Virus record (IMG/VR): IMGVR_UViG_2706794686_000014 | DNA length: 7,332 nucleotides | Source of the DNA: a virus | Taxonomy: Duplodnaviria > Heunggongvirae > Uroviricota > Caudoviricetes | Reading direction: 5' to 3' (one strand) | Shown here: piece after piece, positions 1-7,332 of the stretch | How positions within the stretch are numbered: the first letter of the stretch is position 1 | How the letters are laid out: every line of letters starts with the position of its first letter | The notes under the pieces: generated by a model | Told to the model about the DNA's origin: nothing | What the model saw: the letters and a program-made list of their open reading frames with translations, nothing else | Database searches by the model: none | Program-made: the position numbers and the translations under genes

Positions 1-824
1 TGTTTGATGACCGTATTTATCAGATGACTAATGGCGTTAAAGCTGCCGACCGTATTATTTACACTGTCATGTTGAATGAACAAAAGTTTTATCACGATAA
101 GGGGCAATATTATACCCCTTCATATGCTCATCTTGGTCAGTATGCTGGAATCACAAGAACATCCGTGATTGCATGTATGAAACAACTTGAGGCACATGGT
201 TTAATCAAGAAAACTAACGTTGCAAGCAATCAGTGTGTTATTAAAGTTTATTCACTTGATGAAGTACCGGAGGTTTTAACAGAGCTTACAGCTAAGGAAG
301 CCAGAAAGGCAAAGCTGGAGTCTAAAGTTACTCAGTCAGTCAAGAAAGATGACCCACTGAGTCAAAATTCTTTACCCACTGAGTCAAAATTTTTTACTCA
401 GTCAGTCAAAATCTTTGACACGTATAATAACAGTAATAACAAGAAAGAACTTATTAATAACAATAAAGAAGATGACTTTGAAGAAGAATATTTTAAGAAG
501 GGAGCTTCGCTCTGTGATTCACATGAATGTGATTCTCTTGGTATTGAAGAGGCTATTANNNNNNNNNNNNNNNNNNNNNNNNNNNNNNNNNNNNNNNNNN
601 NNNNNNNNNNNNNNNNNNNNNNNNNNNNNNNNNNNNNNNNNNNNNNNNNNNNNNNNNNNNNNNNNNNNNNNNNNNNNNNNNNNNNNNNNNNNNNNNNNNN
701 NNNNNNNNNNNNNNNNNNNNNNNNNNNNNNNNNNNNNNNNNNNNNNNNNNNNNNNNNNNNNNNNNNNNNNNNNNNNNNNNNNNNNNNNNNNNNNNNNNNN
801 NNNNNNNNNNNNGAACAAGGTTAG
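1..824 (+). CDS. Replication initiator-like protein (lambda O-type, winged helix-turn-helix N-terminal domain); 5' partial, 3' end uncertain because of N block 559-812
   Basis: The frame is open from the window edge through the first ATG at 24, which has no Shine-Dalgarno, so the true start is probably upstream. The N-terminal region (YTPSYAHLGQYAGITRTSVIACMKQLEAHGLIKK) looks like the HTH DNA-binding domain of phage replication initiators. Iterons and an AT-rich tract lie inside the ORF, as in lambdoid O genes. With the N block taken at face value the frame stops at 822-824. Confidence 0.55.
   Translation, partial: FDDRIYQMTNGVKAADRIIYTVMLNEQKFYHDKGQYYTPSYAHLGQYAGITRTSVIACMKQLEAHGLIKKTNVASNQCVIKVYSLDEVPEVLTELTAKEARKAKLESKVTQSVKKDDPLSQNSLPTESKFFTQSVKIFDTYNNSNNKKELINNNKEDDFEEEYFKKGASLCDSHECDSLGIEEAIXXXXXXXXXXXXXXXXXXXXXXXXXXXXXXXXXXXXXXXXXXXXXXXXXXXXXXXXXXXXXXXXXXXXXXXXXXXXXXXXXXXXXEQG
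328..410. repeat. Iteron-like direct repeats inside the replication gene (candidate origin of replication)
   Basis: TTACTCAGTCAGTCAA occurs perfectly at 328-343 and 394-409. CCCACTGAGTCAAAATT occurs perfectly at 353-369 and 375-391, spaced 22 bp (about two helical turns). All four copies share an AGTCA(A) core. Confidence 0.6.
415..500. other. AT-rich tract next to the iterons (candidate DNA-unwinding element)
   Basis: Strongly A/T-biased stretch (e.g. cgtataataacagtaataacaagaaagaacttattaataacaataaagaag) immediately 3' of the iteron array. The frame-1 ORF the track opens at 415 is most likely an artefact of this tract. Confidence 0.45.
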
Positions 825-2847: not shown

Positions 2848-2901
2848 TTGACAAATAACCTTAAGCATGAGATGATGGTAATAGGGAAGAGCAACTCTTC
2901 C
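2848..2901 (+). promoter_or_regulatory. Candidate promoter (perfect -35) followed by a 17-bp palindrome that could be an operator
   Basis: TTGACA at 2848-2853; only weak -10 candidates follow (GATGAT 2871-2876, or TGgTAATAG around 2876-2884). Perfect palindrome GGAAGAG-caa-CTCTTCC at 2885-2901. Confidence 0.3.
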
Positions 2902-2942
2902 TGAATTAAACTATTAATCATTCTACATCAATGATAGTTATT

Positions 2943-2998
2943 CTGAAAGGTGCAATGCTTTTCGCTACATGACCTTTCAGGTTAGTCTGAGAGGTCAT
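2943..2998 (+). other. Two mutually exclusive stem-loops (possible RNA switch or attenuator-like element, or protein-binding palindromes)
   Basis: Stem A pairs CTGAAAGGT 2943-2951 with ACCTTTCAG 2972-2980 (9 bp, 20-nt loop). Stem B pairs ATGACCT 2969-2975 with AGGTCAT 2992-2998 (7 bp, 16-nt loop). They share 2972-2975, so both cannot form at once. Confidence 0.35.
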
Positions 2999-3024
2999 CT
3001 CGAAAAGTACTCTTGTTCATTCGT

Positions 3025-3046
3025 TTGAATCCTTTTTGAATCCTTT
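3025..3046. repeat. Perfect tandem 11-bp direct repeat (TTGAATCCTTT x2)
   Basis: Copies at 3025-3035 and 3036-3046 in non-coding DNA. Checked against a tRNA T-arm and rejected. Confidence 0.5.
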
Positions 3047-3221
3047 AGATGTTTTAATTTCTTCACCTTATGAATGGCCCTTTATAAGAAATTATCTAGG
3101 GCTATTCAGCTTTTAAAAAGCATACTTGGCAAACCGCCTTTTAAGTCTCTTCTAAGTTTAGATAGGCTGTCAGGTGTGCTTTTTAAAAACTGAAACACTT
3201 CCGCTTAGAAGAGGAAAAGCA

Positions 3222-3458
3222 ATGANNNNNNNNNNNNNNNNNNNNNNNNNNNNNNNNNNNNNNNNNNNNNNNNNNNNNNNNNNNNNNNNNNNNNNNNNNN
3301 NNNNNNNNNNNNNNNNNNNNNNNNNNNNNNNNNNNNNNNNNNNNNNNNNNNNNNNNNNNNNNNNNNNNNNNNNNNNNNNNNNNNNNNNNNNNNNNNNNNN
3401 NNNNNNNNNNNNNNNNNNNNNNNNNNNNNNNNNNNNNNNNNNNNNNACAGCGCCTTAG
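3222..3458 (+). CDS. Small protein (about 78 aa) of unknown function; all but the start and last codons are hidden by N block 3226-3446
   Basis: GAGGA at 3211-3215 sits 6 nt before ATG 3222. The same frame emerges from the N block and stops at TAG 3456-3458. The track's GTG 3174 start is less likely. Confidence 0.4.
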   Translation: MXXXXXXXXXXXXXXXXXXXXXXXXXXXXXXXXXXXXXXXXXXXXXXXXXXXXXXXXXXXXXXXXXXXXXXXXXXTAP

Positions 3459-3489
3459 ATTAGATGACGCTTACAGCAAAGTTACCTTG

Positions 3490-3909
3490 ATGCAATCAGC
3501 TATTGAGCCGTCAGAATTTGAGATTCAGGATGAATTGTCACAGAAACCATTTGTCTATTACCAATACGAAGATAATGATGGTTTTGGTACTTTTCAAGAA
3601 AACGTCGCAGCCGTGATTAGTAGTCTTCCTGCTGGACATCGAATTGTGAAGATGGTTAAGGCATCAAGAGGTGCTGGTCAGTTTATTTACATGACTAATA
3701 AGAGCGATGAAGAACTCGCTGAAATTGCTAGACAGAACATCTTGGCATCACGTAACAAGCAACTTGATAATGTTAAGTTGTATCTCTCAAGAGAGCTTCA
3801 GGCTATGAAAGAGCTTGTGAAAGAATATGAAGATGCTAAGAAGATTGCTATGCAGGCTGATATTGAGCAGCTTACGAAGATTTCTAGCAAATATGCAAAG
3901 GCTATTTAA
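3490..3909 (+). CDS. Hypothetical protein, about 139 aa, acidic N-terminal half with a coiled-coil-like C-terminus; possibly a tail-assembly chaperone-like protein given its position
   Basis: Long open frame with codon usage like its neighbours. No SD before ATG 3490 (the track uses TTG 3487), so translation may be coupled to the masked gene. No slippery heptamer or overlapping shifted frame was found that would make a G/GT-type frameshift product. Confidence 0.5.
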   Translation: MQSAIEPSEFEIQDELSQKPFVYYQYEDNDGFGTFQENVAAVISSLPAGHRIVKMVKASRGAGQFIYMTNKSDEELAEIARQNILASRNKQLDNVKLYLSRELQAMKELVKEYEDAKKIAMQADIEQLTKISSKYAKAI

Positions 3910-3933
3910 TTAATAATTAAAAGGTGGTGGTGA

Positions 3934-4140
3934 ATGATTGATTTAACAGAACGCTATGAGCTTATTAAAGCAATTAGTGAACGATTGAAAGAACAACCCA
4001 ACAAACCAAAACGAATCAAATCATTCACCTCCTCTAAGCAAAAGAATAGAATCAGGAAAATAGCTAAGTGGTGTCTTGATAAATTACCAAGTGATTGTCA
4101 GATTGTTGGTGAAGATGGTAATTATTATCTGGTTAGGTAA
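3934..4140 (+). CDS. Hypothetical small basic protein, 68 aa
   Basis: SD AAGGTGG at 3921-3927, 6 nt before ATG 3934. Lysine/arginine-rich centre (KPKRIKSFTSSKQKNRIRKIAKW). Confidence 0.55.
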   Translation: MIDLTERYELIKAISERLKEQPNKPKRIKSFTSSKQKNRIRKIAKWCLDKLPSDCQIVGEDGNYYLVR

Positions 4141-4238
4141 CAAGATTGGTTGGGTGAAAATCTACGGGAGAGATTATCGAGTGATATCGGTAGTCTTTCC
4201 CTTTTTCGTATATGAACACTTAAAGAGGTGAAACATGA

Positions 4239-6419
4239 ATGAGCAAATTCACAGTTGATAGTTTTATCGTTGAACTTAGTTTCAGTGAAAACGTTATTAA
4301 GGGCTTGCAAAGAGTTGAAAAGGCAGCTTTGCAGTCAGCACAAAGAATTGAACGCAATTTGAATAGAGCGTTTAAGGTCGATACCAAGCAACTTGACAGC
4401 AATCTGACAAGTTCTTTAGGGCAGCTTGAAAGGAAGTTTAATAAGACCTTTGACAAGATTGAGCAGAGAGCAAGAAGCACAAAAGCATTTCAGTTTGCCA
4501 CCAGATTTAATGACACTGTTAATCCTCCAAAACAATCAAGGCAACCACGAATTAGCGGAAACAGAGCAATCACAGCAGCGCATAGCGTGAATATGTCTAA
4601 GCTTGGTGATATTAATCCGCTGATGGCTAAAATGTTTAAAGCACAGTATTACAGCTTAAGCGGTAAGGCTGGTAATATTGGAAGTGAAAAGTTTAACGCT
4701 GAACTTGCAAAATTAAATCAATCTCTTCGTGAAACGTTGAATAAACTCAGGTCACAGACAAAGACCGCCAGCATTAACAATACAAGCGACGCATTTAATA
4801 ATCTTGCAAGCAATGCGATTAAATTATCTGGTGCATTTTACTCTGTGATGGGTGCTCTTAACGCTTACAAGGCCATTATGAATGCAGGTCTTAAACGAGA
4901 TTCCGCACAGAGAGCCGCTAAGTTTGTACTTGGTGATAAAGCATCTGAAGCTGAGGTATTTATTCGAAATTTAGCAGACAAGACAGGTCTTAATATCTCT
5001 GAAGGGCTATCAAGCTACGCTAAGTTTGCAGCAGGTGCTCAGGGTTCTATGTCACAGGAACAGACACAGGAGCTATTTGGTAATGCAACGGCTATGAGTC
5101 GCTTAATGGGGCTTTCTAACGATGAGCTAAACGGCATTTTGAGAGCATTTGAGCAGATGGCGAGCAAGGGCAAGATTCAGGCTGAGGAATTACGTGGGCA
5201 GTTAGGTGACCGTATGGCTGGTGCATTTAAGCTATTCGCTGAAGCATTGGGTATGACTGCTACAGAGCTTGATGCAGCCATGAAAAACGGGAAGGTACTT
5301 TCCGCTGATACTCTCCCTAAAGTCGCTAAACAGATGGGCTTGATGATTGATAAAGCGGGTGGCTGGGCTGAAGTCACTAAGAGCACTCAGACAGCTTTAG
5401 GTAAGTTAGCAAACAATTGGGATGATACGATGGTGAAAATCTTCTCAGGTTCACAGGATGAGCTAAACGGCTTCTTATCCAGCCTGAGTAACCTGCTTAG
5501 TGAAATGGGGATGAGTTCTTCTATCGCTGGTGATGCTATCGGTGGACTTATCGACATGCTTAAAGCTGGTGTAGATGATATTCGCGTATTCAATAACACC
5601 ATTGAAGGCTGGATTTTACAGACTAAGAAGTTCTATTACAGCCTTGATGACACTAAACGAAAACTACTTGATGAAGTCGGTGATGGTTTTATCAACTTCG
5701 TCAAAGGTCTTGCTATAGCGTTATCTGCAAAGACGCTATTCAGTGCTACTACAGGGGTTATGAACCTGACAAGAGCAATCACAACGTTAGGTACAAGAGC
5801 TAATCAGGTGGCTGGTCAGGTAGCTACTGGTAAAGGTGGTGGAAAACTGAAAGGTGTAGCTGGTGGTGTAGGTAGTGCTCTTGCAATTGGTTATGCTGAT
5901 GACGGTTATGAAACAGCGTTAGCATTAGCTTCAATGATTCCACAAATCAGAGGCGTCACTCTTGGTTTATATGCATTGAAGAAAGCACTGGATTTTATGA
6001 ATCAGGAAGTAGTCAAAAACGCTAATATGCATCCGTCTGGGGTAGGTGTGGGTAGTGACTTTAATCCCGTGTATTCTGGTGACCCTAATAAACCGAATAT
6101 GATTAACGAAGGATGGAGTAGAATTTTTAGTTCAATGGGTGAATTGTTTAACAATGCCACAATGAATATTGCAAGATTCAATCATCCAGAGTTAAACAAC
6201 ATTAAGCAAGATTCAGCATTAACGAGTGCAGATATTCAGGGTCTGAGGGATGAAATTAGTGCTTTGAGTAAGCGTATTCAGGAGCCAGTGAAAGTTTCAC
6301 TTGGTGGTCAAGTTGTCGTTCGACCAGATGAACCATCTTTCTTTACTTTCAATCAATCAGCTAATGACCAGTTCACGCAGGATATGCTCTTAAGTTCAAG
6401 CTATCCAGAGGAAGAATGA
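4239..6419 (+). CDS. Phage tail tape measure protein (726 aa)
   Basis: SD AAGAGGTG at 4223-4230, 8 nt before ATG 4239. Long helical N-terminal region. The central stretch SRLMGLSNDELNGILRAFEQMASKGKIQAEELRGQLGDRMAGAFKLFAEALGMTATELDAAMKNGKVLSADTLPKVAKQ matches the conserved tape-measure domain. A glycine-rich hydrophobic segment (GKGGGKLKGVAGGVGSALAIGYA) follows, typical of these proteins. Confidence 0.85.
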   Translation: MSKFTVDSFIVELSFSENVIKGLQRVEKAALQSAQRIERNLNRAFKVDTKQLDSNLTSSLGQLERKFNKTFDKIEQRARSTKAFQFATRFNDTVNPPKQSRQPRISGNRAITAAHSVNMSKLGDINPLMAKMFKAQYYSLSGKAGNIGSEKFNAELAKLNQSLRETLNKLRSQTKTASINNTSDAFNNLASNAIKLSGAFYSVMGALNAYKAIMNAGLKRDSAQRAAKFVLGDKASEAEVFIRNLADKTGLNISEGLSSYAKFAAGAQGSMSQEQTQELFGNATAMSRLMGLSNDELNGILRAFEQMASKGKIQAEELRGQLGDRMAGAFKLFAEALGMTATELDAAMKNGKVLSADTLPKVAKQMGLMIDKAGGWAEVTKSTQTALGKLANNWDDTMVKIFSGSQDELNGFLSSLSNLLSEMGMSSSIAGDAIGGLIDMLKAGVDDIRVFNNTIEGWILQTKKFYYSLDDTKRKLLDEVGDGFINFVKGLAIALSAKTLFSATTGVMNLTRAITTLGTRANQVAGQVATGKGGGKLKGVAGGVGSALAIGYADDGYETALALASMIPQIRGVTLGLYALKKALDFMNQEVVKNANMHPSGVGVGSDFNPVYSGDPNKPNMINEGWSRIFSSMGELFNNATMNIARFNHPELNNIKQDSALTSADIQGLRDEISALSKRIQEPVKVSLGGQVVVRPDEPSFFTFNQSANDQFTQDMLLSSSYPEEE

Positions 6420-6431
6420 TTTAACGGTGTT

Positions 6432-6484
6432 CTACGTGAATAAAGCAAAGTTAATACCCACACCAAAAATTATTTTTCACGTAG
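6432..6484. repeat. Inverted repeat with a long spacer in the intergenic region after the tape measure gene
   Basis: CTACGTGAA at 6432-6440 and TTCACGTAG at 6476-6484 are perfect 9-bp reverse complements, 35 nt apart. Confidence 0.4.
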
Positions 6485-6514
6485 CTCACGCTTAACAGAG
6501 AAAATACATATATA

Positions 6515-7320
<806 letters not shown>

Positions 7321-7332
7321 TTTGGCATCCAT

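Follow-up and report, generated by a model that had tools for sequence, protein, structure and literature searches.

A chromosomal island of Escherichia coli with mosaic Felixounavirus tail genes: a putative satellite of Felix O1-like phages

The IMG/VR record IMGVR_UViG_2706794686_000014, a stretch of 7332 bp filed as tailed-phage DNA and called the window below, makes up the core of an island in the bacterial chromosome that measures about 11.4 kb, as megablast against complete Escherichia coli genomes reveals. Its right part carries a gene for a tape measure protein (TMP) followed by a gene for a Dit-like tail tube initiator (TI). On alignment both are mosaic copies of genes from Felixounavirus, the Felix O1-like virulent myoviruses: segments close or identical to the phage proteins alternate with strongly divergent ones. 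The reading to which we give slightly better than an even chance is that the island is a satellite of these phages, which would install its own TMP and TI in tails built by the helper. A broader proposition, which in our judgement could go either way, is that the island represents a widespread and undescribed satellite family of E. coli, Shigella, E. albertii, Citrobacter and Pluralibacter. Such a family would rebuild the core of the helper tail and use two further proteins, p235 and p68, to replace or antagonise the phage chaperones; it would be an independent and genetically tractable counterpart of the PLE–ICP1 system, and would bear on the efficacy of Felix O1-type phages. All substantial open reading frames of the window lie on the + strand, as do the genes and signals described below unless stated otherwise, and two runs of the window (559–812 and 3226–3446) are masked with N.

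The TMP gene occupies positions 4239–6419 and encodes 726 amino acids (aa). An earlier reading of the window, made from its letters without database searches (the sequence-only reading), had recognised a tape measure protein here, and the recognition is borne out by matches to Pfam TMP_3 (PF20155; 2e-21, 77 bits, cut-off 41), TIGR02675 (1.7e-15, 57 bits, cut-off 21.35) and phrog_4036 (4e-93), with PDB chain 9ndy_F, 'Tape measure protein (gp017)', as the top structural match (3.4e-74). The best phage matches are all Felixounavirus TMPs, aligned over their full length with a tblastn query coverage of 100%. Overall identity to these proteins is just 29–33%, and none of the phage records rises above 60%. 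Felixounaviruses share an almost identical structural module (PMC12609058). The island protein shares end-to-end collinearity, length and termini with the Felixounavirus orthologue, but not the sequence identity typical of the genus. It has 726 aa against 735 aa in phage garuso and 735–742 aa in Felixounavirus and Bas63. Identity to the garuso protein is 77% over aa 1–30, 83% over a core motif at aa 301–330 and 100% over the last 10 aa, against 10–37% over the remainder. Island TMPs differ widely from one another, with pairwise identities from 38% to 96%. Their length nevertheless stays at 696–726 aa, and the ratio of non-synonymous to synonymous substitution rates (dN/dS) among islands is 0.12–0.21, which together suggest a functional but fast-diversifying protein. 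By the tail length rule of 1.5 Å per residue, a 726-aa TMP would correspond to a tail of about 109 nm. In the helper-type phage Bas63, 26 tail discs with a rise of 38.1 Å add up to about 99 nm (PMC12609058).

The TI gene follows at 6576–7320 and is broken in the window copy. Intact relatives encode 257–262 aa, match Pfam Dit_like (2.9e-20) and have PDB chain 9ndy_A, 'Tube initiator protein (gp018)', as their top match (3.6e-114). Here too the resemblance to garuso is segmental: each 20-aa block of aa 21–180 shows 85–100% identity, aa 181–240 show 20–25%, and the C-terminal motif SVNPNK is conserved. At the nucleotide level, window positions 6600–7035 are 87–95% identical to more than 200 Felixounavirus genomes. 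The GC content of the islands (39.1–39.4%) is close to that of the phage (38.9%), as against 48.5–55% in the host flanks. Among islands the TI gene evolves with a dN/dS of 0.04–0.14. In the window, a deletion of 74 bp at 6723/6724, relative to both a related E. coli island (L002) and the phage, shifts the frame and leads to a stop at 6726–6728; the remaining TI sequence is readable in another frame. In place of the 3' end of the gene stands, at 7262–7332, the left end of an insertion sequence (IS). This ISSso4-like element of the IS21 family has 23-nt terminal repeats, with tandem repeats of the IS end at 7277–7330, and is 97% identical to Shigella sonnei plasmids, on which the matching region lies about 170 bp upstream of istA. 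Given the deletion and the insertion, the window copy is decaying; its TI is probably non-functional, and the copy as a whole has probably lost full competence. Another IS, ISEc12, is found within the recombinase gene of L002. The sequence-only reading had overlooked four points: the gene after the TMP, which phage the helper is, the merging of two listed genes into one, and the recombinases, which lie outside the window.

The distribution of conserved segments can be placed on the virion of Bas63, in which the last 25 residues of the TMP touch the puncture apparatus and the hub, the TI assembles into a tube-like hexamer fitting the hub to the tube, and a C-terminal extension of the TI, about 100 aa long, passes through the baseplate beside spacer proteins (PMC12609058). 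Of these parts the island proteins retain the TMP tip that contacts hub and puncture apparatus, with its last 10 residues, and the tube-like domain of the TI; the rest of the TMP and the TI arm through the baseplate are specific to the island. The island pair resembles Bas63 gp17 and gp18 (PDB 9ndy) in the order of TMP before TI, in a similar TMP length and in the preserved N-terminus and last 10 residues of the TMP. It differs from them in its setting, an approximately 11-kb chromosomal island instead of an 86-kb phage. Compared with Felixounavirus, the phage chaperone genes are missing, the TMP body and TI arm are divergent, and a spacer takes the place of an overlap: the phage TMP and TI genes overlap, whereas in Escherichia islands a conserved spacer of 156 nt runs from the stop of the TMP gene to the start of the TI gene. 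None of 50,697 phage records contains the island type of TMP body, TI arm or p235, and phages therefore apparently do not draw on these parts.

Complete relatives of the window reside at several chromosomal sites. Insertions are found between yciI and tonB (L002, NZ_AP042701), between ymdF and wrbA (L003, NZ_LR890508), between lafU and dinB (L004, APEC O18) and inside yecE, which is split (L006, NZ_CP148339), and an island with the same synteny occupies another site in Pluralibacter (L007). The same gene set thus recurs at no fewer than five insertion sites, each time with its own allele of a large serine recombinase at one end, outside the window. Each complete relative has only about 10–12 genes. 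Four of them, encoding p235, p68, TMP and TI, form a module whose order is kept in every island, across genera and down to a p235 identity of 25–30%; with the recombinase, the module is present in 12 of the 14 surveyed loci, namely those that extend far enough. The left half is variable, and an initiator, an HNH endonuclease or an AP2-type regulator may be found there. Most islands also encode a small resolvase-type recombinase, and many a Dam-type methyltransferase. Of 5426 complete E. coli genomes, 466 (about 9%) contain related sequence, on chromosomes only and at up to four places per genome. A scan of species-representative genomes returned only two Escherichia loci.

Family scans and annotations reveal no capsid, portal, terminase, sheath, tube, baseplate wedge, fibre or lysis genes in the islands. 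The absence of head and terminase genes, already remarked in the sequence-only reading, therefore holds both in the window and in the complete islands of its relatives, and a major tail gene is lacking as well. In these relatives the wider locus likewise contains no canonical head or major tail genes beyond the limits of the window. The only match in PADLOC is a model of an orphan methyltransferase. The complete relatives are integrated, hold an incomplete set of virion genes and have an integrase of their own, as is characteristic of satellites.

The position upstream of the TMP gene is taken by p235 and p68. The p235 gene (3222–3909) would encode about 229 aa in the window, where 3226–3446 is masked, and encodes 235–236 aa in unmasked relatives. 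What had been read as a masked gene of about 78 aa (3222–3458) and a separate 139-aa protein (3487–3909) is one gene in every unmasked relative, the 139-aa protein being the C-terminal part of p235. Provided that the N mask keeps the length, the ATG at 3222 is out of frame with the readable part of p235 from 3448, and the window gene is therefore either frameshifted or has its start codon hidden under the mask. An AlphaFold2 model (pLDDT 79.5) depicts p235 as a coiled-coil hairpin tipped by a small alpha/beta domain, and its fold matches are generic coiled coils only. The protein has no family match in Pfam, NCBIfam, PHROGs or PADLOC and no tblastn match in the phage records, and just 19 representatives are found among 1.84 billion protein cluster representatives. 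Distant homologues (25–41% identity) occur in Citrobacter, Pluralibacter gergoviae and E. albertii. The dN/dS of the C-terminal part is 0.16–0.53 among islands. In hundreds of genomes NCBI/PGAP names p235 homologues 'transposase', a label for which no transposase family or fold matches. The 68-aa basic protein of the sequence-only reading proved real and conserved: p68 (3934–4140) is a core gene of the island, restricted to Escherichia, with a dN/dS of 0.11–0.28. Its structure model is of low confidence, and a fold search with it gave no match.

The genes ahead of the TMP had been described as unlike the usual tail-assembly chaperone pair, and this stands, with neither p235 nor p68 matching Pfam, PHROGs, NCBIfam or PADLOC families; comparison of the 139-aa protein with chaperones gave no match. 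A programmed-frameshift overlap is likewise lacking: the 229-aa gene ends with TAA at 3907–3909, and a second stop precedes the start of the 68-aa gene, which lies in the same frame at 3934. As chaperones of the helper we compared gp116 and the small gp117 of garuso. An hhalign comparison of the p235 family with both, and BLASTP of p235 against gp116 and of p68 against gp117, found nothing. An 11-residue N-terminal resemblance to the helper chaperone (INGKKV) was discarded, as the profile gives it no support. Since p235 and p68 always lie just ahead of the TMP gene, they may take part in tail assembly, whether by substituting for chaperones or by inhibiting the TMP pathway of the helper; as they have no detectable relation to chaperones, this assignment is a guess. 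Two islands have an extra small gene between p235 and p68, of 138 or 91 aa (L004 9114–9530 and L007 9697–9972); the two products share the motif DGRDDLTFL and have no family match.

In the satellite reading, infection by the helper would switch the island on, its left control region holding patches seemingly copied from intergenic regions of the phage. The island would then excise and subsequently replicate. Its TMP and TI would replace phage gp17 and gp18 at the centre of the tail, giving chimeric tails of about the same length, with p235 and p68 standing in for, or antagonising, the tape-measure chaperones of the phage. Particles filled with island DNA would finally transfer the island at the expense of the phage. 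The patches in question lie outside the window, at 10286–10418 of L003 and about 10746–10879 of L002, upstream of an operon of methyltransferase and initiator. They are 40–63 nt long and match garuso intergenic DNA at about 83–86%. Their counterparts in garuso are 57722–57782, located in a promoter region between divergent genes and containing the palindrome GGATATC...GATATCC, and 50075–50115. These patches may be phage-responsive control sequences.

The closest analogy to such a strategy is found in Vibrio cholerae, where PLEs, islands with large serine recombinases, parasitise the virulent myovirus ICP1; their genes include those for a chaperone and a TMP and, in certain variants, for a baseplate hub protein, they form chimeric tails with ICP1 in which these proteins stand in for the phage counterparts, and their TMP was shown in 2026 to be needed for transduction (PMC12987554). 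Our island likewise is chromosomal, has a large serine recombinase and a replication initiator of its own, and matches a virulent contractile-tailed phage. It also carries a partial tail cluster centred on a TMP (about 30% identical to that of the helper, compared with about 20% between the TMPs of PLE11 and ICP1) and a second central, baseplate-proximal part of the tail. Host genus and helper family are different, and the E. coli island measures about 11.4 kb. Its second tail gene encodes a tube initiator instead of the baseplate hub BhuB, the unrelated p235 and p68 stand where PLEs have a recognisable chaperone, and its TMP and TI are sharply mosaic, with segments nearly identical to those of the helper. 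In the island we recognised neither capsid-remodelling or nuclease functions nor any others known from PLEs. The resemblance is one of architecture and presumed strategy only.

Several points weigh against a satellite. For induction, packaging and transfer by a helper, and for interference with it, the signs are indirect: the helper-matched tail genes, the phage-like patches in the control region and one ambiguous circularly permuted contig. We identified neither a packaging signal nor a terminase subunit or capsid-size factor in the islands, p235 and p68 cannot be related to chaperones, and the TI gene of the window itself is broken. One metagenome contig (L049, SKEF01003551.1, 10,636 bp) is circularly permuted, with a terminal overlap of 146 nt at 99.3% identity. 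Its large recombinase is a C-terminal fragment of 283 aa and its methyltransferase is internally deleted; owing to the truncated recombinase, the contig is not clean evidence of an excised form. The IMG/VR matches, judging from their identifiers, are apparently prophage-style calls in isolate genomes and not virion DNA. Two further metagenome contigs of about 12 kb that were checked end in host flanks and are therefore integrated copies. Lastly, the mosaic pattern of TMP and TI would equally suit a dominant-negative defence.

This last point leads to the strongest alternative, which we nonetheless consider unlikely: a defence island that poisons tail assembly. The TMP and TI would then be decoys that dock by their phage-identical ends and block assembly by their divergent parts, possibly together with p235 and p68. 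Infection would yield tailless or dead particles and protect the population, and the island would spread by other means, unpackaged. Conserved docking ends on divergent bodies fit a dominant-negative protein just as well as a structural one, and no packaging function was found. Tail assembly is moreover a known target of defence, as in the Tai systems (PMC11364771) and in Rta of PLE11 (PMC12987554). The abundance of the island in E. coli and the conserved host-type promoter upstream of its module also agree with such a role. Against it stands the TMP itself: a decoy needs no full-length protein of helper length that is kept under purifying selection throughout. The island's own initiator and iterons are not obviously needed by a decoy either, and no PADLOC defence model matches the island proteins. 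In the tested precedent, the PLEs, transducing particles contain the satellite TMP as a structural component. Tai and Rta resemble the island in targeting the tail assembly of a helper or invader and in being carried by mobile elements; they differ from it in that the candidate effectors of the island are full-length homologues of the tail parts themselves. Satellite and defence roles would be compatible, as they are in PLE11.

Improbable in our estimation is an integrative, plasmid-like or mobilisable island that acquired two phage tail genes by recombination and keeps them as cargo, for example as a reservoir for phages. The recombination tracts between island and phages are clear. An in silico study reported a 544-bp exchange between vB_EcoM_DE7 and E. 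coli chromosomes; that phage is virulent, PHASTER found no prophage in the chromosomes concerned, and the locus was left uninterpreted (PMC11069274). The exchange fits the TI tract, a correspondence not checked against this island. The circularly permuted contig would also suit a mobile element of this kind. Mere cargo, however, would not be expected to keep the order of its four genes in every island across genera, or to be maintained by purifying selection, and a reservoir for phages is at variance with the absence of island-type TMP body, TI arm and p235 from the phage records. The record annotations contain no relaxase or oriT-type gene.

A decaying Felix O1-like prophage remnant or a tailocin-like cluster is hardly credible: the 74-bp TI deletion, the IS21 insertion and the possible p235 frameshift do give the window copy the look of a remnant, but Felixounaviruses are virulent, with a genome of about 86 kb in an order completely unlike that of the island, the islands have defined ends, the same compact content and their own recombinases at several sites, and TMP and TI are their only tail genes, the sheath, tube, wedge, fibre and lysis genes of a tailocin being absent. 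We thus reject a tailocin, and for the family as a whole also a passive remnant, given at least five insertion sites, genes under purifying selection (dN/dS 0.04–0.53) and presence in 466 of 5426 genomes. Among the options raised by the sequence-only reading, the satellite is the one that remains in favour, with an island of about 11.4 kb, its own recombinase, a replication module and two helper-matched tail genes to speak for it; the tailocin and the prophage remnant fall away.

Known satellites of E. coli provide a further comparison. P4-like elements, PICIs and cf-PICIs have recombinases of the tyrosine type. P4 is marked by its tyrosine integrase with Psu, Sid, Delta and alpha, PICIs by AlpA, Pri-Rep and terS or redirecting genes, and cf-PICIs by capsid, portal, protease and terminase genes. 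Like the island as we read it, they are small, integrative and helper-dependent. The island differs in that family scans and annotations give no match to Psu, Sid, Delta, AlpA, a primase-helicase or capsid, portal, protease and terminase proteins, in that its recombinases are of the serine type, and in that its presumed helper is a virulent myovirus and not a temperate phage. Some cf-PICIs carry putative tmp genes (PMC12987554, Extended Data Fig. 10).

We found no link between satellites and Felix O1 or Felixounavirus in the literature, of which our coverage is incomplete, so that an earlier description is possible. The island would be a putative new satellite family using a recently discovered strategy: the first demonstration of satellite TMPs and of chimeric tails dates from 2026 and concerns one Vibrio system (PMC12987554). 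If true, a second and unrelated family in E. coli would make the strategy general and would open it to genetic study in that species. It raises the questions of which surfaces of TMP and TI decide the choice of partner, what p235 and p68 do, and how an 11-kb element uses the capsid of an 86-kb phage. Felix O1-like phages are proposed for biocontrol and therapy of Salmonella and E. coli, and an island able to exploit or block them could have an effect on how well they work. With about 9% of the complete E. coli genomes carrying it, such an element could also move DNA between strains. At present the family is mis-annotated, with p235 passing for a transposase and prophage finders missing the locus.

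The module is surrounded by conserved regulatory elements. A sigma-70-type promoter at 2848–2876, matching 10 of 12 positions in a scan, consists of TTGACA, 17 nt and GATGAT with an extended -10 TG. The sequence TGTTGACAA at this promoter is invariant in six aligned islands, including the distant one from Pluralibacter. It is followed by a structured leader of about 340 nt upstream of p235 (2877–3221) with conserved hairpins, in which three base pairs show compensatory changes. The leader includes a terminator-like GCCC...GGGC hairpin followed by a run of T at about 3078–3105 and an inverted repeat with arms of 27 nt at 3105–3194. It matches no Rfam family, and Rfam over the whole window gave nothing credible; the leader could be a regulatory RNA or an attenuator. 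Between p68 and TMP, at 4166–4211, the scan detected a hairpin with a stem of 15 pairs and a following run of T, resembling an intrinsic terminator. This hairpin is conserved across islands and is kept in L002 and L007, where the stem sequence differs; it would imply separate or anti-terminated expression of TMP and TI. The 156-nt spacer between TMP and TI contains an inverted-repeat element at 6432–6496, to which no strand is assigned, composed of CTACGTGAA, 35 nt and TTCACGTAG, followed by CACGCTTAAC. It is kept in all Escherichia islands. A second copy of CTACGTGAA-N35-TTCACGTAG is located upstream of the TMP gene in L006 (9769) and apparently, by alignment, in L007; the element was not found in the garuso genome. 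Taken together, promoter, leader, terminator-like hairpin and inverted-repeat element suggest, as a conjecture from their arrangement, staged and possibly helper-dependent expression.

The left part of the window holds a replication initiator gene at 24 to approximately 1000, cut at its 5' end by the window edge and masked at 559–812. The listed frames 24–824 and 415–948 represent this one gene, joined under the mask. The predicted protein has a winged-helix, DnaD-N-like N-terminus and an acidic C-terminus, matches PHROG replication-initiation families (2e-11), and in Pfam gives weak DnaD_N and HTH matches below the gathering cut-offs; its relative in L002 has 325 aa. Within the gene, at 338–416 and without assigned strand, about 3–4 copies of a 22-nt unit form an array of iterons (Tandem Repeats Finder score 95), and the initiator gene of L003 contains an equivalent array of 3–4 copies of 23 nt (L003 11856–11943). 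The array is a putative origin in an arrangement like that of lambda O. The initiator match and the iterons point to a replication module of the island's own, which would presumably drive its replication. Downstream of the initiator, four small genes of 98, 106, 75 and 101 aa (948–1244, 1538–1858, 2067–2294 and 2441–2746) are kept at 86–100% identity in related islands and have no significant family match in Pfam, PHROGs or PADLOC. The variants L004 and L006 are without this initiator. A stretch of 58 nt in L004 (4508–4565) shares about 83% identity with a region of garuso (5652–5709) that is annotated as a repeat region and made of ACCAnACC repeats, and might be a borrowed phage origin or another cis-acting site.

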